DNA from: Eubacteriales bacterium
GTDB lineage: Bacteria > Bacillota > Clostridia > Oscillospirales > CAG-272
Direction: 5' to 3'
DNA length: 64,000 nt
Assembly: GCA_045657105.1 (NCBI GenBank)
Contig: JAZOSN010000032.1
Span: 12,477 to 76,476 of the forward strand
The position numbers and the translations under genes were made by a program. The notes below the pieces were generated by a model, which made no database searches, was not told the DNA's origin, and worked only from the letters and a program-made list of their open reading frames with translations. Positions 1-33,314 of this stretch are shown here, in pieces. Each line of letters starts with the position of its first letter. The first letter of the stretch is position 1.

Positions 1-1311
1 ATCGTAAGGGGCGCACCCGAGCTTATCCTTCCAAACGTTGAAAGTATAGTCACTTCAAACGGCAAAATAGACAAGAGCTTTGATAAAAATAAGGTGTACG
101 CGAGAATGCGCGAAATGACCTCTCAGGCAATCAGAGTTCTTGCCGTGGCTCTTTGTGAAAGCCTGCCCGAAAAGGGGCTTGCAGGGCAAAAATTTACGCT
201 TGTCGCGCTCGTAGGAGTGCGTGATAAGGTTCGTAGGGAAGCGAGAGCGGCGGTCGATGAGATACACGGCGCACTCGTTCAGGTAGTGATGCTCACGGGT
301 GATAATAAGGAAACCGCAAGCGCGGTCGCCCGTGAATGCGGAGTAATCGGAAAATTTTCGGACAGTGTTGTCCTTACCGGCGAGGAGCTCTCGAAAATGA
401 GCGATAAAGAGGTGAGCGAGATACTCCCAAGACTCGCGGTCATAGCAAGAGCTCTGCCGGGGGATAAAAGTCGACTCGTTCGTATAGCGCAGGATATGCA
501 GCTCGTCGTCGGAATGACGGGTGACGGAGTAAACGACGCGCCTGCGCTCAAAAAAGCCGATATAGGCTTTGCTATGGGGAGTGGCACCGACGTTGCCAAG
601 GAAGCAGGCGATATAGTCGTGCTTGATAATAATTTTAGGTCGATAGTCAAAGCGGTGCTGTACGGACGGACGATTTTTGCAAGTATACGAAAATTTATAA
701 CCTTTCAGCTCACGATGAACCTGTGCGCGGTCGCAGTGAGTCTTATCGGACCTTTTATCGGAATAGATACTCCGATAAGCGTAATACAGATGCTCTGGGT
801 AAATATAATCATGGATACCCTGGGCGCGCTCGCGTTTGCAGGCGAGGCGGCGGTCAAGGATATAATGAAGGAAAAGCCGAAAAAGCGGAGCGAGGGACTG
901 CTATCAAAATATATGATAGGGCATATCGTCTTTTCGGGGACGGTTACCGTCGCACTCTGCCTTACTTTCCTGTGCAGCAATAAAATAAAAGCCTTTTACG
1001 GCGCTTTTGACGATCCGACAAGACATCTCGGCGCGTTTTTCGGACTGTTCGTTTTTCTCGGAATATTCAACTGCTTCACCGCACGTACCGAGCGCGTAAA
1101 TATCGGCGCGCATCTTGAAAAAAACAGGGCGTTCATCTTAATAATGACGCTCGTTGCGGTAATACAGACGCTTATGATCTATTTCGGCGGAGCGACCTTC
1201 CGAACGCTGCCGCTTAGCTTCACCGAGCTTTCGTTCGTTGTGACTCTCGCCTTTCTCGTCGTTCCTGCGGATACTGTGTGGAAGGTGTTTCTACGGACGA
1301 GGCGTAAATAA
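1..1311 (+). CDS. P-type cation-transporting ATPase (type II, Ca2+-ATPase-like), C-terminal part; 5' end lies outside the window
   Basis: Frame 1 is open from nt 1. The translation carries the P-type hinge motifs MLTGDN and GDGVNDAPALKKADIGFAMG, followed by several hydrophobic C-terminal helices. Confidence 0.85.
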   Translation: MVRGAPELILPNVESIVTSNGKIDKSFDKNKVYARMREMTSQAIRVLAVALCESLPEKGLAGQKFTLVALVGVRDKVRREARAAVDEIHGALVQVVMLTGDNKETASAVARECGVIGKFSDSVVLTGEELSKMSDKEVSEILPRLAVIARALPGDKSRLVRIAQDMQLVVGMTGDGVNDAPALKKADIGFAMGSGTDVAKEAGDIVVLDNNFRSIVKAVLYGRTIFASIRKFITFQLTMNLCAVAVSLIGPFIGIDTPISVIQMLWVNIIMDTLGALAFAGEAAVKDIMKEKPKKRSEGLLSKYMIGHIVFSGTVTVALCLTFLCSNKIKAFYGAFDDPTRHLGAFFGLFVFLGIFNCFTARTERVNIGAHLEKNRAFILIMTLVAVIQTLMIYFGGATFRTLPLSFTELSFVVTLAFLVVPADTVWKVFLRTRRK

Positions 1312-1480
1312 GCAAGACGGATGAGGTGATCCCCGACCGATAATATCTCTGTATGCGAATTTTCGTACAACGGGGTACTACTCATCCACCACTGCGCTTC
1401 GCTTGTGGTCCCCCTTCTCTCGCAAGAGAAGGCTTTGATAGGAAAAGAGCAGTTCGAGTGAACTGCTCTTTAGCTTTTTA

Positions 1481-2878
1481 TCATTCAATCTCCATTACCT
1501 TGCTAACGAAAAACTCTCCGCGCTCCTCGAAATTCTTGAACATATCAAAGCTGGCGCAGGCAGGGGAGAGAAGCACTATGTCGCCCGCTTTTGCTATTTC
1601 TGAGGCAACTCTTACGCTATCTGCGAGGTCTGTCGTTTCGTAAATTTCCGGCTTTTCTACGGCGCTCTTGTACTCCTTAGAGGAAACGAGTGCGCTCTTT
1701 ATCTTGTCTTTCGTTGCACCGCAAAGGATCACCGCCTTCGCCTTTTCGCAAAGGGGCGCGGCGAGCGGCTCGAAGGGAATATTTTTATCGTATCCGCCGC
1801 AGAGAACTATTGTCTTTTGCACAAAATTCGAGAGCGCCGCCGCTGTTCTAGTCGGGCTTGAATCTATCGAACTGTTATAGTATTTTACGCCGCGAAGCTC
1901 GCGTACGAACTGACATCTGTGGGCAACTCCGCCGAAATTCTTTGCTACCTCGCATATCGACTCTGTTGAAACTATGCCGTAAAGCGCACCGATCGCCGCC
2001 ATATAGTTCTCGACGTTGTGGCGTCCGGGAATCTTTATATCCGCGCTTTTCAGTATCGCATTTTCATTATAATATATAGTTCCGTCCTTTTCGTAAACCC
2101 TGTTTTCGCAGTCGGGAACGGATTTTGACGAGAAATATACGACCGTTCCTTTTGCGCTCTTTCCGAGCTCTCTTGTAACGGGGTTCTCCCAATTGAGCAC
2201 GATGCGCGAGGAAGAGTCCTGATATTTCATTACGTTCGCTTTCGCGTCGATGTATTCCTGCATACCGAGATGGTAGTCAAGATGGTTGGGAGTAACGTTC
2301 GTTATGACCGCGATCTCGGGGGATTTTGCCATCGTGTGAAGCTGGAATGAGGAAAGCTCGGCTACCGAATAGCTGTTCTCGTCCATATCGTCAACGCGAG
2401 GGAGCAGAGGAAATCCGATATTTCCGCCGAGGAAGGTGTTTTTGCCGTCAGCTTCGAGGATCTTACTGATCACAGTCGTAGTCGTCGATTTTCCGTCGCT
2501 TCCGGTGATGCCTATCGTGCGAGCGGGGGTGATGTCGAAATAGAGCTGCATCTCAGATGTGATCTCGGCGCCTCTTTTCGCCGCCTCTATAAGCGAGGGC
2601 TTATCGAAACGGATACCCGGCGAGCGGAAAACTATGTCCTCGGTGATGTTTTCAAGATAGTTTTCTCCGCAGATAAGCGTGACTCCCTTGGCTTCAAGCG
2701 AAGCGGAAAGCTCACTTCCCAGCTTTTCGCGGTCCTTCATATCGCGCGCCACGACTCTTGCGCCGTATTTTAGCAAAAAATCAATAAGCGGAAGATTGGA
2801 AACGCCGATGCCGAGCACCGCCGCGCTTTTTCCGTTAAGCATATTTTTAAGATAGATTTCTCTCTCGGTCATGTTCAC
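1481..2878 (-). CDS. murD: UDP-N-acetylmuramoylalanine--D-glutamate ligase
   Basis: 465 aa with an N-terminal Rossmann-like GIGVSN motif and the Mur ligase P-loop GITGSDGKSTTT; length and domain order are typical of MurD. Confidence 0.9.
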   Translation of the reverse strand: MNMTEREIYLKNMLNGKSAAVLGIGVSNLPLIDFLLKYGARVVARDMKDREKLGSELSASLEAKGVTLICGENYLENITEDIVFRSPGIRFDKPSLIEAAKRGAEITSEMQLYFDITPARTIGITGSDGKSTTTTVISKILEADGKNTFLGGNIGFPLLPRVDDMDENSYSVAELSSFQLHTMAKSPEIAVITNVTPNHLDYHLGMQEYIDAKANVMKYQDSSSRIVLNWENPVTRELGKSAKGTVVYFSSKSVPDCENRVYEKDGTIYYNENAILKSADIKIPGRHNVENYMAAIGALYGIVSTESICEVAKNFGGVAHRCQFVRELRGVKYYNSSIDSSPTRTAAALSNFVQKTIVLCGGYDKNIPFEPLAAPLCEKAKAVILCGATKDKIKSALVSSKEYKSAVEKPEIYETTDLADSVRVASEIAKAGDIVLLSPACASFDMFKNFEERGEFFVSKVMEIE

Positions 2879-3079
2879 AGTTTAAAATTCCTTTCGGAAG
2901 AATATTTTGGACTTTTATTGACTATCATATATTATCATTATACATTGAGGAATGGAAGATATCAACAGATTTTTGAATATTTTTTGATTTTTTTGACAAA
3001 ATTGATTTCGCGCTTTAAAGTGACGGCGAAAAAGACTGAAAATTTTTGAAAAAAAGTTAAAAAAACTTGCCGAAAGATG

Positions 3080-3108
3080 TTGACAAATCGAATTTGTTCT
3101 GCTATAAT
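3080..3108 (+). promoter_or_regulatory. sigma-A type promoter for tRNA-Gln
   Basis: Perfect TTGACA (3080-3085), a 17-nt spacer and perfect TATAAT (3103-3108), preceded by an A/T-rich UP-like tract; it lies 40 nt upstream of the tRNA 5' end. Confidence 0.65.
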
Positions 3109-3148
3109 ACAAAACGTCGCCGAAAGTGCGATACCAAACATAAAACGT

Positions 3149-3219
3149 TGGGGAATTGTGTAACGGTAGCACAGCAGACTCTGACTCTGTATGTTGGGGT
3201 TCGAATCCCTATTCCCCAG
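3149..3219 (+). tRNA. tRNA-Gln (anticodon CUG), no encoded CCA
   Basis: Hand-folded cloverleaf: 7-bp acceptor stem UGGGGAA/UUCCCCA, anticodon stem GCAGA/UCUGU with loop CU-CUG-AC, T-loop GGTTCGAATCC, discriminator G. Confidence 0.9.
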
Positions 3220-3225
3220 TAATGC

Positions 3226-3251
3226 AAAGGACGCCTTATGGCGTCCTTTTT
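3226..3251 (+). terminator. intrinsic terminator after tRNA-Gln
   Basis: Stem AGGACGCC/GGCGTCCT with loop TTAT, followed by a T-run. Confidence 0.7.
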
Positions 3252-3265
3252 GCGTTACTGAAAAA

Positions 3266-3283
3266 GGGAATAGGGATTCGAAC
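3266..3283. repeat. inverted 18-nt copy of the tRNA-Gln T-arm/acceptor 3' segment
   Basis: GGGAATAGGGATTCGAAC is the exact reverse complement of 3199-3216 (GTTCGAATCCCTATTCCC). A further direct 10-mer AATCCCTATT occurs at 3382-3391. Confidence 0.8.
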
Positions 3284-3510
3284 AAGGAGGGAGCGAAGCG
3301 GAAGAAAACTCTCCGGGGGAGAGTTTTCGCCGACGTGGGCAACGAGCGGAGCGAGGCGATAGGCGCGCGGCGCGCCGGAAAAATCCCTATTACGATTTAT
3401 GTTGAAAGCGCATCTTAAACGCGGCGGTAGGGGCTGGCGCCCACGACAGCCCGTTTGGCAAGGCGCAGGGCGTGTGAATCACGAAGCGAAAGCGGAGTGA
3501 TTCCGAAAAG

Positions 3511-3753
3511 TTAGTTCTCAAATAACTTCTCCATACTAACACCGAGAATTTTAGCAATTACAAAAATTTCTTTATCGGTAGCACTGCGAAGCTGACCTTC
3601 GAGCTTTGAATAACTTGTTGGATTCATATCATAACCCATGGTCTGTATTTTTGCAATGAAATCCTTTTGCTTGATTCCTTGTTCCTTGCGAAGCTTTTCT
3701 ATATTTCTGCCAACTATGTTGGCGTTTCCGTATTCTTGCTTGCGAGTTTTCAT
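3511..3753 (-). CDS. XRE-family helix-turn-helix transcriptional regulator
   Basis: 80 aa with an HTH_3-like core (IEKLRKEQGIKQKDFIAKI ... SYSKLE ... IAKILGVSMEKLF). Confidence 0.8.
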   Translation of the reverse strand: MKTRKQEYGNANIVGRNIEKLRKEQGIKQKDFIAKIQTMGYDMNPTSYSKLEGQLRSATDKEIFVIAKILGVSMEKLFEN

Positions 3754-3876
3754 GAATTTTATCCTTCTTAGTTCTTTTTTAGAATTATATCTCCGAAAAG
3801 TATTGACAAAATTCCAAAAAAGAATTATAATAAAATAAATTCCAAAACGGAATAATAACTTTGAAGGAGAAACAAG

Positions 3877-4557
3877 ATGAAAGAAGAAAAAATTATTTGC
3901 GAAGGAAATATGGGAGAGAATAAAACTTCCAAAGGGTTACTTATCGGAGCAGTTATATTCATTATCACGGCATTCGCGATGATTCTTTATTGGTATAATA
4001 ATTATGGAACACAACACTATTATGGTGGATATATGGATAAGTTTACTCCGTATACGGAACAATATGATAATGTTTTTGAATTTTATATTTATAACGGCTT
4101 CGATTTTTATTCGGAATGGGCTACAATGTCATTTTGTATGTTGATGATGGCAGCTGTTTGTGTATTGATCAGCATTTTTCTTTGGCTTTTCTGGCGTTGC
4201 GAGCTTACGGTTACCAATAAAAGAGTTTACGGCAAGGCGGCTTTCGGAAAAAGAGTTGATCTTCCGTTAAAACAGATTTCTTCGCTCGGAATGGGAATTT
4301 TTGGACGTGTCAGTGTTTCGACCTCGTCCGGACATATAAGCTTTTGGCTTCTGGAAAACAAAGAAGAAATTTTTGCCGCTATTTCCGAGCTTGTCGGTAA
4401 TTTTCAGGACGTTCCTCAAACCGGTGATAGATCGGGTGCGGCGGAAAGTCCCGAAGATGCAGCGGAAAGTATAAAGAAATTCAAGGAGCTTCTTGACGCA
4501 GGAGTTATAACTCAGGAGGAGTTTGACACGAAAAGAAAACAGATTTTAGGTCTGTGA
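3877..4557 (+). CDS. membrane protein with C-terminal SHOCT domain
   Basis: GGAG RBS; two hydrophobic helices and a PH-like middle region. The C-terminus KKFKELLDAGVITQEEFDTKRKQILGL matches the SHOCT consensus. Confidence 0.75.
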   Translation: MKEEKIICEGNMGENKTSKGLLIGAVIFIITAFAMILYWYNNYGTQHYYGGYMDKFTPYTEQYDNVFEFYIYNGFDFYSEWATMSFCMLMMAAVCVLISIFLWLFWRCELTVTNKRVYGKAAFGKRVDLPLKQISSLGMGIFGRVSVSTSSGHISFWLLENKEEIFAAISELVGNFQDVPQTGDRSGAAESPEDAAESIKKFKELLDAGVITQEEFDTKRKQILGL

Positions 4558-4567
4558 TTACATCAAA

Positions 4568-4596
4568 ACAAAAACACGCCTTCGGGCGTGTTTTTC
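4568..4596 (+). terminator. intrinsic terminator
   Basis: AAAACACGCC-TTCG-GGCGTGTTTT hairpin followed by a T-run. Confidence 0.8.
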
Positions 4597-4604
4597 TCTT
4601 ACAC

Positions 4605-4633
4605 TTGACAATCCGAATTATCTATGCTAAAAT
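4605..4633 (+). promoter_or_regulatory. sigma-A type promoter for upp
   Basis: TTGACA (4605-4610), a 17-nt spacer and TAAAAT (4628-4633), 30 nt upstream of the upp start. Confidence 0.55.
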
Positions 4634-4663
4634 CAAACAAAAGCACAAAAAGAGGGAAGTACA

Positions 4664-5305
4664 ATGAAAAACTACGAAAACGTGGTCATTTTCGACCATC
4701 CGCTTATCAGACACAAGATCGCAATTCTTCGCGACGAAAAAACGAGTATGAAGGAATTTCGTGAGCTCGTTGAGGAGATAACTACCCTTATGACCTACGA
4801 AAGTCTTAAAGACGACGTTCCGACCGTGGAGGTCGAGGTCAAAACCCCGCTCGATATTTGCACTCAGCGTATGGTAAAGGATAACGCCATCGTTATAGTA
4901 CCGATCCTTCGCGCAGGACTCGGTATGGTCAACGGAGTCCACGTTCTTTTCCCGTCGGCAAGAGTAGGGCATATCGGTATGTGCCGTAACGAGGAAACCC
5001 TTGAACCCGAAACCTATTACTGCAAGCTTCCCGACGGCATCGAGGAAAAGCTCGTCGTCGTTGTCGATCCTATGCTTGCAACCGGCGGAAGCGCCTGCGA
5101 CGCTATCGATCTTCTCAAAAAGCGCGGCTGTAAGCATATCAAATTTATGTCGATAATTGGCGCGCCCGAAGGTGTTTCGAGAGTTGCGAAGGCTCACCCG
5201 GACGTTAAGATATACGTTTCCACTCTCGACAGATGCCTGAACGAGCACGGATATATTCTCCCCGGTCTTGGAGATGCAGGCGATAGACTTTTCGGAACTA
5301 AATAA
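4664..5305 (+). CDS. upp: uracil phosphoribosyltransferase
   Basis: 213 aa with N-terminal VIFDHPLIRHKIAILRD, the PRPP-binding loop VVVVDPMLATGGS and C-terminal GDAGDRLFGTK. Confidence 0.92.
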   Translation: MKNYENVVIFDHPLIRHKIAILRDEKTSMKEFRELVEEITTLMTYESLKDDVPTVEVEVKTPLDICTQRMVKDNAIVIVPILRAGLGMVNGVHVLFPSARVGHIGMCRNEETLEPETYYCKLPDGIEEKLVVVVDPMLATGGSACDAIDLLKKRGCKHIKFMSIIGAPEGVSRVAKAHPDVKIYVSTLDRCLNEHGYILPGLGDAGDRLFGTK

Positions 5306-5436
5306 ATTATAAAGAGGCTTTTCTTTGAAAAAGCTTCTTTTTGTTTAAACATGGATAACGTGTGAATTTTGTGTTGACAAGTGTCGATATATGTGGTATA
5401 ATTACTCAAAATTACAGTAAAAGGAGATTTTTTACT

Positions 5437-6993
5437 ATGGCAGGTACGTTTTGGGCGTTTATGCCTGCGATCGTTGCGATCGTGCTCGCCCTACTTACAA
5501 AGCAGGTGTATATTTCGCTTTTCCTCGGAATATTCACAGGAGCGCTTATGTACGTCGGAGGAAATCCTCTGCGCGCGCTCGGCACACTCTATACGGTTAT
5601 GAGCGAAAAGGTCGGATCAAATGTTTCGATTATCGTTTTCCTCGTAGTCCTCGGAATTTTCGTTATTCTTATGCAGAAGTCCGGCGGATCGAGAGCTTAC
5701 GGCGACTGGGCAGGAAATAAGATAAAGTCGAAGAGCGGTGCACTTGCGGCAAGCGCAGGGCTCGGCTGCCTCATCTTCGTTGACGACTATTTCAACTGTC
5801 TTACAGTCGGCTCGGTTATGCGCCCCGTTACCGATAAGTTCAGAGTTTCTCATGCAAAGCTCGCGTGGATAATCGACTCTACGGCGGCTCCCGTTTGTAT
5901 TATCGCTCCCATTTCTTCGTGGGCGGCGGCAGTTTCGGGACAGCTTGAAGGCGACGGACTTATGGTATTCATCAAGACCATACCCTTCAACGTTTATGCG
6001 ATACTTACTATAATTATGGTATTCACCTTCTGCTATTTCAAGCTCGATTTCGGCAAGATGAAGAGAAACGAGATTATAGCAGAGGAAACGGGCGACCTCA
6101 ATGCAGGTGAAACCGATCTTCCCACCGACGAGGACGCGTCTATCGTTTCCAATCCTCGCGGTAAGGTTCGCCACCTCATCGTTCCGGTAATAATTCTTAT
6201 CGCTTGCTGTATCGGCGGAATGATCTACTCGGGATTCTTCTACGATTGGGATGCAGGTGTTTACGGCACAGCCGTTCAGTCGGCAAATGTAATCGAAGCC
6301 TTCTCGAACTGTGATGCAGGATCTTCTCTTGCAATCGGATCGACGATCGCTCTCCTTCTTGTTTCTATTTACTATTCGATAGAGAAGGTCGTTTCCTTCA
6401 AGGAAATAACCGAAAGCTTCACACAGGGCTTTAAGGCGATGGTTCCGGCAATACTCATTCTTACCTTCGCATGGTCGATCTCGGGTATTATGGGTGCTAA
6501 GGGCGGTTATCTTGACGCTCAGGCGTTCGTTGAGGCGAATATGGCAAATATTCCTCAGGCACTCGAATCGCTCTTCCCGGCGATCTTCTTCGTCCTCGCG
6601 TGTGCGATCGCATTTGCAACCGGTACCTCTTGGGGAACCTTCGGCGTTCTCGTTCCGATAGCAGTCACTCTGCTTGGCGGAAGCGGAACTCTCGTATTCC
6701 TCACCGTTTCGGCAACTCTTGGCGGTGCTGTATTCGGCGACCACGTTTCGCCTATCTCGGATACCACTATCCTTGCTTCGACGGGCGGTAACTGTAACCA
6801 CGTTGACCACGTAAAGACTCAGCTTCCGTATGCACTGTCTATGGCGGTCATATCGATAATTTCTTACGTAGTAGCAGGCTTCCTTGCACCCACAGGATCG
6901 GTCGTTGCAGGTCTTGCTATGTGGGCAGTAGCACTCGCGCTCTTTGCTACATTCGTTGCAATGATAAAGCTTGGCGGTAAGAAAAGGGCTTAA
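5437..6993 (+). CDS. Na+/H+ antiporter NhaC-family membrane transporter
   Basis: Polytopic membrane protein of NhaC-like length and pattern. The start is placed at the ATG at 5437 behind an AAGGAG RBS (the ORF opens at 5362). Confidence 0.75.
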   Translation: MAGTFWAFMPAIVAIVLALLTKQVYISLFLGIFTGALMYVGGNPLRALGTLYTVMSEKVGSNVSIIVFLVVLGIFVILMQKSGGSRAYGDWAGNKIKSKSGALAASAGLGCLIFVDDYFNCLTVGSVMRPVTDKFRVSHAKLAWIIDSTAAPVCIIAPISSWAAAVSGQLEGDGLMVFIKTIPFNVYAILTIIMVFTFCYFKLDFGKMKRNEIIAEETGDLNAGETDLPTDEDASIVSNPRGKVRHLIVPVIILIACCIGGMIYSGFFYDWDAGVYGTAVQSANVIEAFSNCDAGSSLAIGSTIALLLVSIYYSIEKVVSFKEITESFTQGFKAMVPAILILTFAWSISGIMGAKGGYLDAQAFVEANMANIPQALESLFPAIFFVLACAIAFATGTSWGTFGVLVPIAVTLLGGSGTLVFLTVSATLGGAVFGDHVSPISDTTILASTGGNCNHVDHVKTQLPYALSMAVISIISYVVAGFLAPTGSVVAGLAMWAVALALFATFVAMIKLGGKKRA

Positions 6994-7010
6994 AGTAAAA
7001 TAAAAGAAAA

Positions 7011-7039
7011 AGCTTCTCGCGCGGCGAGAAGCTTTTTTT
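7011..7039 (+). terminator. intrinsic terminator
   Basis: AGCTTCTCGC-GCG-GCGAGAAGCT hairpin followed by T7. Confidence 0.85.
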
Positions 7040-7128
7040 GTAAAATTCTATGTTTCATTTGACTTTTCATTTATTTTGTGTTATACTTGTCGAAGTGTGC
7101 CAAAATAGCTTGAAAGGAATGACTTATC

Positions 7129-8055
7129 ATGGAAAAAAATAAGACAGGAATATTTACAAATCCAATCATCGTAGCGATAATAGCTATATTCTGTTGCGCG
7201 CTCTGGGGAAGTGCAACGCCATTTATAAAGATAGGATATTCGCTTATGCTCCCTCACGGCGGCGTACCCTCTACGATGCTTTTTGCGGGTATAAGATTTA
7301 CCCTTGCGGGTATTATAACCGTTATAATATTCAGTATCGCGAGAAGAAAATTTCTTTTCCCTAAAAAAGAAAATTTCGGCAAGGTTGCGACAGTAAGCCT
7401 TTTTCAGACCGTAATTCAGTATGTTTTCTTTTACGTGGGACTCTCAAACACCTCGGGTGTAAAGGGAACGATAGCAAGCGGATCGAGCGCGTTTTTCGCA
7501 CTTTTGATCGCTGCTCTCATCTTCAGACAGGAAAAGCTTAGCGTTAAAAAGATAATTGCCTGCATTCTCGGATTCGCGGGAATAGTTGTGGTAAATATAA
7601 GCGGACTCGATCTTACGATGAATTTCACGGGCGACTGCTTCGTGCTCTTTTCCGCGATGAGCGCGGCATTTTCTTCCGTACTTATTAAGCGCTTTTCAAA
7701 AAGCGAGGATCCCGTTACCATAAGCGGTTACCAGTTCATTGTCGGCGGAATCGTTATGATAATAATCGGTCTTGCCTTTGGCGGAAGGGTTACGCTTGGC
7801 GGAACTGACGCGCTTTTAGTGCTCCTCTATCTCGCGCTTCTTTCTGCACTTGCATATTCGCTCTGGGGCATACTTCTCAAATATAATTCGGTATCCAAGG
7901 TTACTATATATAACTTTATGACTCCCGTTTTCGGAGTTCTGCTCTCGAAGGCGCTTCTCAGTGAGCAGAGTAACGTAGATCCTATAAATCTCGTTGTAAC
8001 GCTTCTGCTTATTTGCGGCGGAATTATTATGCTTAACTATAAAAAGGAATCCTGA
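7129..8055 (+). CDS. EamA/DMT-family transporter
   Basis: 308 aa with about 10 hydrophobic helices in two EamA-like halves. Confidence 0.8.
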   Translation: MEKNKTGIFTNPIIVAIIAIFCCALWGSATPFIKIGYSLMLPHGGVPSTMLFAGIRFTLAGIITVIIFSIARRKFLFPKKENFGKVATVSLFQTVIQYVFFYVGLSNTSGVKGTIASGSSAFFALLIAALIFRQEKLSVKKIIACILGFAGIVVVNISGLDLTMNFTGDCFVLFSAMSAAFSSVLIKRFSKSEDPVTISGYQFIVGGIVMIIIGLAFGGRVTLGGTDALLVLLYLALLSALAYSLWGILLKYNSVSKVTIYNFMTPVFGVLLSKALLSEQSNVDPINLVVTLLLICGGIIMLNYKKES

Positions 8056-18401: not shown

Positions 18402-19703
18402 GTGATTAGTATGAAGCGAAACGCGATAGAAGTACTGCTTAAATGGAAAAACGACGAAGAGCGCAAGCCGATGGTGCTAAAGGGTGCCCGTCAGGTCGGT
18501 AAGACTTGGCTTATGAAGGAATTCGGCAGAAGTTATTACGAAAATTACGTATATTTCAACTTTGACGAGGAAGACGAGCTACAGTCTATCTTTGAAACGA
18601 ATAAGAATCCCAAGAGGATCATAGAGCTGCTTTCCTTGGTTGCGGGAGAAAAAATACTTCCCGGTACTACGCTTGTTATATTTGATGAGATACAAGAGTG
18701 CCCGTCTGCGCTCAACGCCCTGAAATATTTTAGGGAAAAGGCAAACGAATACCACGTGATTGCTGCAGGCAGTCTGCTCGGAACGCTCCTTGCTCAGCCG
18801 AAATCCTATCCCGTGGGGATGGTCAATCTGTTGGATATCCATCCGCTGACCTTCGATGAATTTTTGGATGCTACCGATGAGTCGCTGTATGCCTACTATC
18901 AAAGCATCACCAAAGAACAAGTAATCGAAGAAATCTTCCACAATCGCCTGATGGAAGCGTATAATAACTATCTGATCATCGGCGGAATGCCCGAATGCGT
19001 TGCGTCCTGGGTGAAGCATAAGGATCCGGCAAGAATCACGCAGATCCAGAAGGAGCTTGTTCAGATCTACGAAAACGACTTTTCCAAGCATAACGGAAAA
19101 GTGAACAGCGGAAGAATTTTGCAGGTTTTCCGCAGTATCGTAACTCAGCTTGCAAAGCCTAACGAAAAGTTTATGTACGGCGCAGTAAGGGAAGGCGGCA
19201 GAGCGAGAGACTTTGAGGAAGCTATCGAATGGCTCGTCTCTGCAGGGATGCTGAACCGCGTATACAATCTTTCTAAATTGGAGCATCCGCTGTCCGCTTT
19301 TTGTAAGATGGATCAGTTCAAGCTTTTCGTGTTTGATACGGGACTTCTGAAGTATATGGCTGGCATTGATAACAGCGCAATCCTCTTAAAGACTGACTAT
19401 CAATTTAAGGGGCCTTTGACCGAAAATTACGTTCTTCAGCAGCTGATTGGTCAGTTCGACGTGGATCCTCACTATTATTCGGACAGGAGCGGAGAGATCG
19501 ATTTCGTCCTGCAGAACGGCACTGAGGTTATTCCCGTGGAAGCCAAGGGCGGCGAGGACAAATCCGCACCGACATTTAAGAAATACGTAAACGAGCACCT
19601 CCCAAAGCACGCAGTCCGCTTCTCAAAACGCGGCTACCGCAAGGACGGCTATATCACCAATATGCCGCTGTACCTTGCAAGAAGAATGAAAGATTTGCTG
19701 TGA
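18402..19703 (+). CDS. AAA-family ATPase (AAA_14 N-terminus plus DUF4143-like C-terminus)
   Basis: Walker A GARQVGKT and Walker B LVIFDEIQ; the C-terminal half is typical of the DUF4143 ATPase family. Confidence 0.8.
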   Translation: MISMKRNAIEVLLKWKNDEERKPMVLKGARQVGKTWLMKEFGRSYYENYVYFNFDEEDELQSIFETNKNPKRIIELLSLVAGEKILPGTTLVIFDEIQECPSALNALKYFREKANEYHVIAAGSLLGTLLAQPKSYPVGMVNLLDIHPLTFDEFLDATDESLYAYYQSITKEQVIEEIFHNRLMEAYNNYLIIGGMPECVASWVKHKDPARITQIQKELVQIYENDFSKHNGKVNSGRILQVFRSIVTQLAKPNEKFMYGAVREGGRARDFEEAIEWLVSAGMLNRVYNLSKLEHPLSAFCKMDQFKLFVFDTGLLKYMAGIDNSAILLKTDYQFKGPLTENYVLQQLIGQFDVDPHYYSDRSGEIDFVLQNGTEVIPVEAKGGEDKSAPTFKKYVNEHLPKHAVRFSKRGYRKDGYITNMPLYLARRMKDLL

Positions 19704-19748
19704 GTGAACCAAAACATTAGAGCTGCGAACTGATTTTTTAATGGCCAT

Positions 19749-32028: not shown

Positions 32029-32072
32029 ATTTGCCTCCTGTAGTTTTGTATCACTATTATAGTAAGCACAAA

Positions 32073-32088
32073 GTGCGAAAAAACGCAC
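32073..32088 (-). promoter_or_regulatory. operator-like inverted repeat GTGCG-T6-CGCAC (copy 3)
   Basis: Lies 11 nt upstream of the minus-strand TATAAT (32056-32061) in front of the WYL regulator gene. A second extended -10 (TGTGATATAAT, minus strand) lies just upstream. Confidence 0.55.
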
Positions 32089-32330
32089 ATTGATATTATA
32101 TCACAGATCTTTTAATTTGTCAAATTCCTGAAGCGCCATGCGGAGGGTGTTGCCACTGTAATATTTGACTTTAAGTGAAGGAGATCGTCACAGTTTGATA
32201 AGGACGTTTTCTACATATTAGACGATGTTGAAATACGGGTTCCCCCTTATAGGGTAATTATTGAATTTGGGTTGAAAACGTTCTTTTTTGATATGATTCC
32301 GTCCAAATCCGTATTGATTACGTAAGTAGA

Positions 32331-32380
32331 ACTGCTCTAAATCGTTCTAATCGATGATAATCGTTTCTAAACGCTTCTCA
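32331..32380. repeat. five tandem 10-bp units (consensus aTCGtTCTAA)
   Basis: ACTGCTCTAA ATCGTTCTAA TCGATGATAA TCGTTTCTAA ACGCTTCTCA, in exact 10-nt register. Confidence 0.6.
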
Positions 32381-32553
32381 ATAATATATCCTTTAAAAAT
32401 CGTCTGTCCTTTAGAAATGATAGAGTTTCGAGAAGCTTTTGCGGTCATTTTCTTTTGGAAATAACTATCGTTTTCAACGCAAAATCATTTTAATATGACA
32501 AGAAGAATGACTTTCATTCAGAGACGCAACCGAGGGTAGAAAATCCCTGTTCT

Positions 32554-32780
32554 TCATTTCTGAAAGAGGGTCATTTTCATTTCGTAAAGAGCATCATCAC
32601 TCTCGAAAAGAACATCATCCGTCATATTGAAACGAGAGCACTTCATCATATCGAAAGGGCGGCGGCATCATTTCAAAACGAAAGTTTTGCCTTCCATTAA
32701 TCTAAAAAGAAATCCAAAATAAATCTGAATGACTCATTTCAAAATGATAGATGATATATCATCTTGAAATGAAAGATACG
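32554..32780. repeat. iteron-like array of about 8 degenerate units of 17-28 bp (core TCAT..TC..GAAAG)
   Basis: Units start at 32554, 32571, 32594, 32615, 32643, 32668, 32734 and 32759. Each has TCAT(T/C) followed by a (T)GAAA(G) core. Confidence 0.55.
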
Positions 32781-32799
32781 AACAATTCCCATAAAAGAC

Positions 32800-32833
32800 G
32801 GTCCGTACCGAGAGGTGCGGACCATATTTTTTT
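32800..32833 (+). terminator. possible intrinsic terminator at the end of the ORF-free segment
   Basis: GGTCCG/CGGACC stem with a 12-nt loop, then ATATTTTTTT. The stem is short, so this is tentative. Confidence 0.4.
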
Positions 32834-33076
32834 GTGAAAAATTTTTTGTATTTTTCTTGAAATACCCCCTTTTTGCAAAGCATTTATTATTTACAAAAGC
32901 AAAATTGGAGGTGAGAGGGATGTATAGAACTTCGTGACTAAAATTTTTGTAGGGAAGAACAAATAACGAAAAAACGCTGCCCGATTAAAAAAGCAGTTTC
33001 GGGCAATAATAGAAAGGAAGGATTTTACTATGATGAATTGTGTTTTGATGCAGAGGACTCGTGAAGGTGAGGTGCT

Positions 33077-33259
33077 GTGGCTACGGAATCAAACACTATT
33101 AATATAAGTGAAAAAAAGAAAAATCTCGTTATGGAACAGCTATGGCTTACCTATTTTAACGACAGTCTTTTAAAAAGCGGCGTAATATCGAAAGATGAGC
33201 ACGAGAGAATGCGTGTGATCATCAAAAACCGCTCTTTTCGTATAGAACAGCAAGGGTAA
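33077..33259 (+). CDS. small hypothetical protein upstream of the recombinase
   Basis: GTG start behind a GGTGAGG RBS; 60 aa, helical-looking (LWLTYFNDSLLKSGVISKDEHERMRVII); followed by a hairpin with a T-run. Confidence 0.45.
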   Translation: MATESNTINISEKKKNLVMEQLWLTYFNDSLLKSGVISKDEHERMRVIIKNRSFRIEQQG

Positions 33260-33266
33260 GTATTAT

Positions 33267-33304
33267 GGGCGGCGAAATTTATTTTGCCGCCCGTGACTTT
33301 TTTT
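33267..33304 (+). terminator. intrinsic terminator after the small ORF
   Basis: GGGCGGC/GCCGCCC stem followed 4 nt later by T8. Confidence 0.55.
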
Positions 33305-33314
33305 GTGAAGTCTA

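Follow-up and report, generated by a model that had tools for sequence, protein, structure and literature searches.

The DNA analyzed here (the window) is a stretch of 64,000 nucleotides from an Eubacteriales bacterium (GenBank assembly GCA_045657105.1, contig JAZOSN010000032.1, positions 12,477 to 76,476 of the forward strand). It contains a gene-free segment of about 750 nucleotides with a WYL regulator gene on its left and, on its right, a 60-aa open reading frame (ORF) followed by a large serine recombinase gene. Our comparisons suggest that this segment is an orphan, truncated cis-acting array of sites for the ribbon-helix-helix (RHH) proteins of a family of integrative elements, most likely a relaxosome assembly and origin of transfer (oriT) region that doubles as a control region and is usable here only in trans. 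We give this reading, which draws on sequence comparison and structure models, a probability of roughly 45%. The stretch is neither a hidden gene nor part of the serine recombinase machinery. The element family itself appears to be widespread in gut Oscillospiraceae, Acutalibacteraceae and other Clostridia, is probably mobilizable and, as far as we found, is undescribed.

No ORF of 40 aa or more is listed in 32089-32733, which agrees with the statement in an earlier annotation made from the letters alone (the sequence-only reading) that the segment holds no ORF of at least 60 aa. A 49-aa ORF on the minus strand and a 40-aa ORF on the plus strand, and no others, clip its 3' end, and stop codons are abundant in all six frames. 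About eight degenerate repeat units had been described there and all eight were confirmed at their places, with starts at 32554, 32577, 32597, 32622, 32646, 32668, 32734 and 32759. Counting sequences that agree at 11 or more of the 12 informative positions, the 14-nt consensus TCATWTCRAANNGA has 9 matches in the 852-nt segment, as against a mean of 0.02 and a maximum of 1 in shuffled sequences, and the remaining 63 kb of the window contains 2. Sites in the reversed orientation were found upstream of the main array (32407, 32485 and about 32506-32521), and therefore the array extends beyond 32554-32780: the units do lie in that interval, as was claimed, but they are not confined to it. The sites and associated repeats are arranged as follows.

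32407-32498, minus strand: two reversed sites, TCATTTCTAAAGGA at 32407-32420 and TCATATTAAAATGA at 32485-32498 (motif scans).
32554-32681, plus strand: array of six direct 14-bp pseudo-palindromic units, at the first six starts given above.
32697-32726, plus strand: three short direct repeats, TTAATCT, AAATCC and AAATCT, 11-12 bp apart in an A+T-rich spacer (read from the sequence).
32734-32772, no strand: inverted pair of two units with 19-nt arms, 89% complementary and 1 nt apart (repeat search).

The logo of 158 distinct units reads, in percent, T94 C92 A87 T98 T75 T96 C80 G64 A94 A96 A74 N G88 A94. It is symmetric at 6 of the 7 position pairs, position 12 being free, and the spacing between unit starts peaks at 23-26 bp. 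A change of T to A at position 5 is not compensated by A to T at position 10, and there is no internal covariation. Because the logo is symmetric and compensating changes within units are lacking, we read it, from the sequence, as the mark of a site in double-stranded DNA that is bound by a dimeric or pseudo-dimeric protein and recurs every ~2.3 helical turns, and not of small RNA hairpins. CodY-box, Spo0A-box and cre readings of the unit were dropped, as their spacing or core did not fit.

The units belong to a conserved non-coding module of 0.7-1.4 kb that is present at about 20 distinct loci (designated by L numbers) in gut Clostridia. A 20-nt pattern taken from the best-kept unit retrieved 25 metagenome contigs, 17 of which share part of the segment, and look-ups via a neighboring protein retrieved 15 further loci (L106-L120), about 9 of them distinct. 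The comparison of homologous islands that the sequence-only reading had recommended shows repeats that are conserved in motif, orientation and 23-26 bp spacing at about 20 loci, with a copy number varying from 4 to 9; neither a decayed gene nor a loss of conservation was found, and the sequence evidence upholds the proposal of a protein-binding type of repeat array in a mobile element. The layout in 20 copies is 2-3 reversed sites, 4-9 direct sites, a gap and the inverted pair, and the motif scan places the same 2-3 minus-oriented sites upstream of the direct array in every relative. From left to right, the module plan begins with a nearly invariant landmark, TCCCCCTTATAGGGTAATTATTG, and continues with a conserved block with ...CCTTTTGAAATGATAGAGTTTCGAGAG, one or two hairpins with clade-specific stems, the box TATGACAAGAAAGATGACTGTC...ACAGAGGG, the 4-9 direct units with the best-conserved last unit TCATTTCAAAACGACAGTTTTGCC, three WAATCT repeats 11-12 bp apart, the inverted unit pair, ATTCCC(A/G)TAAAAG and a G+C-rich hairpin followed by TTATTGTTTTCTTGAAAC. 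The last direct unit together with GTTTTGCC is the most conserved piece of the module, with metagenome depth up to ~10-fold higher at that unit. The search pattern does not account for this conservation, since the unit is kept in all seven (7/7) distinct loci that were retrieved independently via the protein. The columns of the three 11-12 bp-spaced repeats are conserved in the alignment of relatives, which also keep the inverted pair. Downstream of the last unit, the pre-hairpin box ATTCCCATAAAAG adjoins the conserved hairpin, and its nearly invariant AATTCCCATAAAAG form is retained even in the L091/L094 subfamily, which itself lacks the G+C-rich hairpin.

Homology to relatives places the limits of the window copy at ~32204 and ~32935, which replaces the limits of 32089-32835 first given to the feature. 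Gut-metagenome Logan contigs match from 32203/32205 to 32924 at ~90%, one ~90% relative covers 32205-32689 and 32716-32924, and gut-metagenome assemblies contain many diverged pieces of 32203-32445, 32667-32703 and 32734-32772. With blastn, L099, L100 and L109 align to 32306-32839 at 71%. The segment had no blastn match in phage and plasmid collections, and four exact or degenerate patterns gave zero matches among viral contigs, and in IMG/VR the element is thus not carried by phages. No species-representative genome contained a 23-mer taken from the conserved upstream block, the copies being too diverged for exact words. The landmarks of the module and of its right end in the window are the following.

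32204-32935, plus strand: the whole conserved non-coding module in the window copy, from the first base common to relatives to the stub of ORF1, the first gene to the right of the module in relatives.
32239-32262, minus strand: the landmark TCCCCCTTATAGGGTAATTATTG, found in 12 of the 12 relatives having enough upstream sequence.
32437-32484, plus strand: hairpin d, with the stem TTTTGCG / CGCAAAA and a loop with TTCGAAA-like cores (folding of relatives).
32784-32797, plus strand: the box AATTCCCATAAAAG, just 5' of the G+C-rich hairpin (alignment).
32800-32835, plus strand: intrinsic terminator, GGTCCGTACC-GAGA-GGTGCGGACC then ATATTTTTTTG (terminator scan).
32907-32937, plus strand: ribosome-binding site (RBS) GGAGGTGA, ATG at 32920 and five codons plus stop (MYRTS*), a stub of ORF1 (aligned to the ORF1 start of L099, L100 and L109).
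32925-32961, no strand: deletion junction between the module and the unit of 60-aa ORF and serine recombinase (homology breakpoints).
From 33077: the 60-aa ORF and serine recombinase unit (ORF listing).

On the minus strand, the landmark is the Shine-Dalgarno sequence and 5' untranslated region of a leftward gene of ~100 aa in relatives (in L100, L106 and L109 an ATG lies 7-8 nt past AAGGGGGAG), and in the window no ORF follows it. The landmark CCCCCTTATAGGG had been considered as an attachment-site core or a promoter, and both were rejected because it is the RBS of the leftward gene in these three loci. The landmark at 32239-32251 (TCCCCCTTATAGG) and the pre-hairpin box at 32786-32797 (TTCCCATAAAAG) are alike, in the manner of direct repeats, and bound a core of ~545 nt.

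Intact relatives have a characteristic gene order around the module. To the right, L106, L109, L113, L114 and L116 carry ORF1 (157 aa), ORF2 (200 aa, a paralogue of ORF1), ORF3 (282-290 aa), a RemA-like gene, and the genes for a Tn916-type Xis and integrase (Int); the variant L112 instead closes the series with a large serine recombinase preceded by a 58-aa ORF. The ORF1 and ORF2 genes start ~130-330 bp downstream of the module. To the left are the ~100-aa gene and then a DUF4143 AAA ATPase, and the cargo beside the backbones includes LlaJI/AAA_5, DndB, TIR/HATPase, WXG100, Phd/ParE and AbiEi-type genes. For none of ORF1, ORF2 and ORF3 did Pfam, NCBIfam or PHROGs give a significant family, the homologues of ORF1 and ORF3 are unnamed in a collection of 5.8 billion proteins, and our literature search found no description of the module or of ORF1-3. 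The three unnamed backbone families are carried by L106:6001-8354, L112:3001-5130 and ~240 database proteins (P0001-P0150), and their copies are mostly on short contigs, as expected of repeated mobile DNA.

The window copy has lost these genes. Searching the whole window with ORF1, ORF2 and ORF3 by tblastn found none of them, and the truncated gene start at 32920, like a possible origin of transfer, is a point absent from the sequence-only reading. Homology to the module relatives stops at ~32924, and homology to another island, L001 (a metagenome-assembled genome of Eubacteriales, JAZNHT010000004.1), begins at 32962, perhaps at ~32940. L001 has a recombinase 92% identical to that of the window and the same neighborhood, with a small ORF resembling small acid-soluble spore proteins (by eye) and a DUF4143-type ATPase to the left, but no module and no WYL cassette. 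Just upstream of the start of homology it has an ORF3 that lacks its N-terminal part and what is likely a RemA-like gene (by eye), and downstream of it a near-identical 60-aa ORF precedes the recombinase; the region examined, 700-7800, contains two DUF4143/AAA_14-type ATPase genes, the second judged from N-terminal sequence only. By this sequence comparison, the deletion in the window runs from ORF1 codon 6 to ~170 nt past the end of the RemA-like gene in L001, and the two islands look like differently decayed products of one element at what is apparently the same chromosomal site. Because the deletion removed everything from ORF1 codon 6 through the RemA-like gene, the window array would act only in trans, with the proteins of a related element, or be a relic. 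Complete modules not followed by ORF1-3 were found at three or more other loci, L082 (int-xis, module, TetR/MMPL), L095 (module, Phd/ParE) and the L091/L094 type (housekeeping genes, module, AbiEi-like), and this fits a cis-acting site served in trans.

The predicted properties of ORF1-3 suggest what such a site could be for. The ORF1 model (predicted local distance difference test score, pLDDT, 80) has a strand-helix-helix arrangement twice and then two long helices, and we predict from it that ORF1 and ORF2 are tandem RHH proteins with two RHH units per chain; no Pfam RHH family matches either protein. These paralogues are the most likely binders of the 14-bp units, with TCATTTCGAAANGA as their probable binding target in the units. 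Since the pseudo-palindromes (TCATTTC-GAAANGA) recur every ~24 bp, bound proteins would spiral around the helix. In the AlphaFold2 model of ORF3 (pLDDT 89.8), a winged helix at the N terminus is followed by an alpha/beta domain; the invariant motif IPD...EVECG..H.Q and the model indicate a PD..ExE nuclease-like domain. Foldseek matched ORF3 to winged-helix regulators and, along its entire length, to AF2093 and VC1899, with nothing below E = 1e-3, and tblastn against plasmids returned only four hypothetical megaplasmid proteins, the Alkaliphilus neighborhood being uninformative. A profile comparison (hhalign) with the TraX-like Replic_Relax (MOBC) family of pTEF1 aligned 167 collinear columns, PD on PD and EVE on EIE, at E = 0.019, so that ORF3 is possibly a distant MOBC/TraX-like relaxase, which we offer as a lead and not as membership. 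In the proposed mechanism, the array would serve for relaxosome assembly and as origin of transfer of the element in concert with the short repeats 11-12 bp apart, the inverted pair and the conserved hairpin and its box, ORF3 would be the nicking enzyme, and the RemA-like protein, Xis and Int (or the small ORF and serine recombinase) would follow. The array probably also controls divergent promoters.

Known mobilization systems offer partial parallels. No structure of a MOBC relaxase has been solved, and these enzymes are akin to restriction endonucleases (PMC6499999). The plasmid pTEF1, typed MOBC, encodes a 261-aa Replic_Relax protein of a family with the motif VPD...FEIELT.K, and upstream of this gene (19498-19735) it has a ~140-bp inverted repeat beside 12-bp direct repeats. 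The oriT2 of pAD1 likewise has a large inverted repeat next to short direct repeats. The module resembles pAD1 oriT2/TraX (MOBC, PF13814) and pTEF1 in having a long non-coding region 5' of a small gene and a ~260-290-aa winged-helix PD..ExE/K protein; it shares with pTEF1 the large inverted repeat (32734-32772) beside a series of short direct repeats (32697-32726 and the six 14-bp units), a likeness of architecture only and not of sequence. ORF3 and the pTEF1 TraX-like family have collinear motifs in the alignment; an adjacent Replic_Relax/PD-(D/E)XK relaxase gene is absent from the window, and in relatives ORF3, with its weak alignment, is a candidate for that position. The two plasmids differ from the module elements in showing no significant sequence similarity (hhalign probability 2.4%, no Pfam match), in being plasmids where the module elements are chromosomal and integrative with two intervening tandem-RHH genes (the window copy having no protein genes), and in their repeats, which in pTEF1 are ~5-7 contiguous 12-bp units, as opposed to 14-bp palindromes every ~24 bp and three 11-12-bp repeats in the module. 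TraY and VirC2 have two RHH units in one chain. F TraY, Ti VirC2 and pCF10 PcfF are like ORF1 and ORF2 in being RHH proteins (predicted, for ORF1 and ORF2) whose genes adjoin a repeat-bearing non-coding region; unlike them, ORF1 and ORF2 have long C-terminal helices and occur as two paralogues, the fold matches are at E ~1, and the 10-17 sites of a module are much above the number in known oriTs. Streptococcal integrative and mobilizable elements (IMEs) have a compact order of relaxase, excisionase and integrase, with PF13814 representing the MobC superfamily (PMC5357655). The module elements are similar to these IMEs in the compact order of putative relaxase, excisionase and integrase with cargo on the other side (PMC5357655), whereas ORF1-3 fall outside the described mobilization families and their role in mobilization is putative. 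Islands with oriT alone are reported to be common (the iOriT concept, bioRxiv 10.64898/2026.01.13.699239), and the orphan modules without protein genes are like them.

Several results weigh against an oriT function. The top Foldseek matches of ORF1 (VirC2, chains of F-plasmid relaxosome structures, DndE and PcfF) are all non-significant (E ~1), the hhalign probability of the ORF3-MOBC alignment is just 2.4%, ORF3 has no PF13814 match in Pfam at E up to 1 and no BLAST link to enterococcal plasmids, and no gene for a coupling protein or type IV secretion system was seen near any module copy. The ORF1-3 genes of the orphan modules could simply lie elsewhere in elements cut by contig ends. Lastly, the terminator-like G+C-rich hairpin and T-run on the plus strand argue that the region is also transcribed and may act partly as RNA.

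The hairpin at 32800-32833 had been judged weak from the sequence alone; it is instead a strong, conserved intrinsic terminator, with 10 bp (7 of them G-C) in 32800-32823, a 4-nt loop and a run of seven T, and it is kept in relatives. It has the G+C-rich stem-loop, the U-run and the pairing kept on the transcribed strand that characterize Rho-independent terminators, and scans also call a terminator in L106, L109 and L113. In 16 aligned terminators there are 35 G-U/U-G cells as compared with 2 C-A, single pairs passing through C-G, U-G and U-A, and therefore it is the plus strand that folds, either as RNA or as transferred single-stranded DNA. Further upstream, the stem of hairpin d forms in nearly all relatives with differing inner pairs (GCGG/CCGC, GGC/GCC, GACC/GGTC), and many relatives have a second, inserted hairpin (d2) with stems unrelated in sequence; d and d2 persist across five clades whose stems are unrelated. 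Both were assessed by folding each sequence separately, since RNAalifold on the upstream half missed them, the stems not being homologous column by column. Their summed folding energy is about equal on the two strands (-409.6 kcal/mol for plus, -394.4 kcal/mol for minus), and the fold of the window against shuffles has z = -5.2 on the plus and z = -3.9 on the minus strand. In Rfam 15 the best match of the window is Thr_leader, which scores 26 bits against a gathering score of 55 and covers the terminator alone, and a scan of four relatives gave nothing at E up to 0.01. Searches for RNA runs containing the segment or the L100 sequence found none; the sole run returned (X25) behaved like a metagenome with ~90% relative contigs.

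Promoter scans and alignments point to transcription signals at both ends of the module and beyond its left end.

32095-32123, minus strand (read from 32123 to 32095): promoter of the WYL regulator gene, TTGACA-17-TATAAT (promoter scan).
32354-32381, minus strand: leftward promoter-like site TTGAGA-16-TATCAT (10/12), facing the WYL operon (promoter scan).
32857-32890, plus strand: promoter-like box TTTTCTTGAAA then TATTAT, with poor spacing (22 nt), homologous by alignment to the TTGAAA-N18-TATATT-type sites 5' of ORF1.

The leftward site has counterparts in L109 (TTGATG-16-TATCAT) and L106 (TTGACT-16-AATCAT). L106 and L113 each have a predicted plus-strand promoter (TTTACA-16-TATCAT) near the left edge of the module, L109 has a weaker one, and in these three loci it converges with the conserved minus-strand promoter ~40-70 nt away; the window counterpart, as read from the sequence, has a 14-nt spacer. 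Downstream of the terminator, the promoter-like TTGAAA-N18 repeat occurs one to three times in relatives. L106 has three tandem units of ~90-105 nt in the interval from the terminator to ORF1 (5740-6000), each starting with TGTTTTCTTGAAAC and having a TTGAAA-N18-(A/C/T)ATATT promoter-like site, and L109, L099 and the window have two TTTTCTTGAAA boxes each, one of them within the terminator tail. The sequence TAA(A/T)CG recurs every ~10 bp in 32331-32380 of the window, where it overlaps the promoter-like site at 32381..32354, and is partly conserved in relatives. Between the leftward site at 32354-32381 and 32088, no terminator-like site was seen except the weak 5-bp operator inverted repeat at 32073-32088, and the promoter-like site of the relic may add transcription to the WYL cassette.

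These signals could mean that the module is purely a transcriptional switch without a role in DNA transfer, which we consider possible but unlikely. The units would then be operators for RHH (perhaps RemA-like) proteins between two face-to-face or divergent promoters, and a plus-strand leader would be halted at the terminator unless it is read through into the operon from ORF1 to Xis-Int, as in prgQ/prgX or the Tn916 leader attenuation. A terminator that is conserved and specific to the plus strand, the left-edge promoters converging on the conserved minus-strand one, the TTGAAA-N18 repeats after the terminator and an operon that ends in xis and int, which need tight control of expression, all speak for it, and the position of an intrinsic terminator between a long untranslated region and a xis/int operon, with predicted converging promoters, is shared with pCF10 prgQ/IRS1 and the Tn916 orf12 leader. 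The module differs from the latter two in having no leader peptide or known counter-transcript, and we know of no repeated palindromic sites like those of the module in either system. What counts against a pure switch is that 0.7-1.4 kb with 10-17 sites far exceeds the known needs of a repressor and its operators, that complete modules persist without downstream ORF1-3 (L082, L095, L094 and the window), that the plus-strand promoter counterpart in the window has its 14-nt spacer, and that the searches for RNA runs returned no transcript data. It is less probable still, and in our judgment improbable, that the module encodes a large structured plus-strand RNA of ~530-650 nt ending at the terminator, whose UCAUUUCGAAA motifs are bound as RNA or pair with the reversed upstream copies. 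The unusual non-coding length with high sequence conservation, the strand bias of the terminator, the retention of d and d2 with unrelated stems in five clades and the plus-strand fold of the window would agree with such an RNA. The earlier suggestion of a repeat-rich non-coding RNA gains from the plus-strand-specific terminator and the covarying hairpins and loses with regard to the units themselves, which lack covariation, would be hairpins of only ~4 bp, and match no Rfam family in the window or in four relatives; moreover, the minus strand folds nearly as well, RNAalifold yields little consensus structure, and no RNA run holding the sequence was found. A further reading, in which a structured plus-strand RNA of ~550-650 nt is transcribed from the module and its 6-9 UCAUUUCGAAA motifs are read by tandem-RHH/RemA-like proteins that decide between termination and read-through, is a long shot; if true, a protein-RNA attenuation switch of a new type would control both excision and transfer of these cargo-carrying, partly defence-like islands, a large family in gut Clostridia.

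The relaxosome reading also has to be weighed against those that place the array in replication or recombination. An iteron-type replication or partition site of the excised element had been among the first proposals; in a centromere-like partition site ORF1 and ORF2 would be ParR- or omega-like binders, or ORF3 would be the initiator of a replication origin. The classical iteron layout is seen in the direct repeats, which are spaced at 23-26 bp and have an A+T-rich stretch and then an inverted pair after them. Binding of centromere repeats by RHH proteins, as in type Ib and type II partition systems, would suit ORF1 and ORF2, and ORF3 has a winged helix. We nevertheless regard this as quite doubtful: at 11 loci (gene tables or Pfam scans) the neighbors of the module include no Rep_3, RepA_N, Rep_trans or PriCT protein and no ParA, ParM or TubZ NTPase, the Pfam, NCBIfam and PHROGs scans of the neighbors in the window and relatives found no replication initiator (Rep) family, no DnaA box (up to 1 mismatch) is present within 32089-32940, and the C-terminal half of ORF3 is nuclease-like and not a second winged helix. 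The module is like theta-plasmid iterons and parC centromeres in its direct repeats about two helical turns apart, A+T-rich stretch and inverted motif pair, and unlike them in having no initiator, partition NTPase or DnaA box and in units that are pseudo-palindromic, as opposed to asymmetric iterons. A two-winged-helix Rep assignment for ORF3 was rejected on account of the alpha/beta nuclease-like C-terminal half with its invariant PD..ExE. Accessory (res-like) sites for the neighboring serine recombinase, another early proposal, would be suggested by proximity alone, the array lying ~500 bp upstream of the recombinase unit. The module is missing from all 80 loci whose recombinases are 66-92% identical (they share with the window only 32962-33314, the small ORF), and so the units are not recombinase accessory sites; the module is equally often beside a Tn916-type Int/Xis, the adjacency in the window was produced by deletion, and we give this idea hardly any credence. 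We think just as little of a decayed protein-coding gene or a chance low-complexity region. The sole coding trace in its favor is the 5-codon ORF1 stub at 32920; against it, every frame is interrupted by stops, the one long open frame shows no excess of third-position changes when compared with relatives, indels are not multiples of three, gene callers give no consistent ORF across relatives, and the motif is enriched several hundred-fold.

The element family has as its backbone the 0.7-1.4 kb non-coding module together with the three protein families that lack names, and its cargo includes genes for restriction, Dnd, TIR, toxin-antitoxin and type VII secretion as well as, in the window, a WYL-controlled cassette. 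If the module is an oriT served by a distant MOBC relative, this would explain how the islands move and provide a new set of relaxase, accessory proteins and oriT for a phylum in which mobilization is poorly mapped, and orphan copies would mark islands that hitch by means of proteins made elsewhere.

Some minor features were noted beside the module. In one subfamily (L088, L093, L095 and L085), ~60-170 nt left of the landmark, ATGGGGTGGAATATGGGGTGTCAA is repeated three times at ~37-nt spacing, and in L082 (4480-4620) (A)ATGATACC occurs four times left of the module, alongside the Tn916-type Int/Xis; both may be arm-type sites of a recombinase or Xis, and the window has repeats of neither type. 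The whole non-coding segment of the window is flanked by a direct repeat of 23 nt with 83% identity (32064-32086 and 32955-32977). Its left copy contains the operator inverted repeat of the WYL cassette, and the right one, within the recombinase unit, is also kept in L001; the repeat may be due to chance or be a recombination scar. The 58-aa protein of L112 has a weak SHOCT_2-like signal, and tblastn with this protein found that, of the 80 related loci, 51 (within L005-L080) have a relative of the 60-aa ORF (33077-33259) ahead of the recombinase gene. The 60-aa ORF is a conserved partner of the recombinase family, possibly a directionality or regulatory factor.

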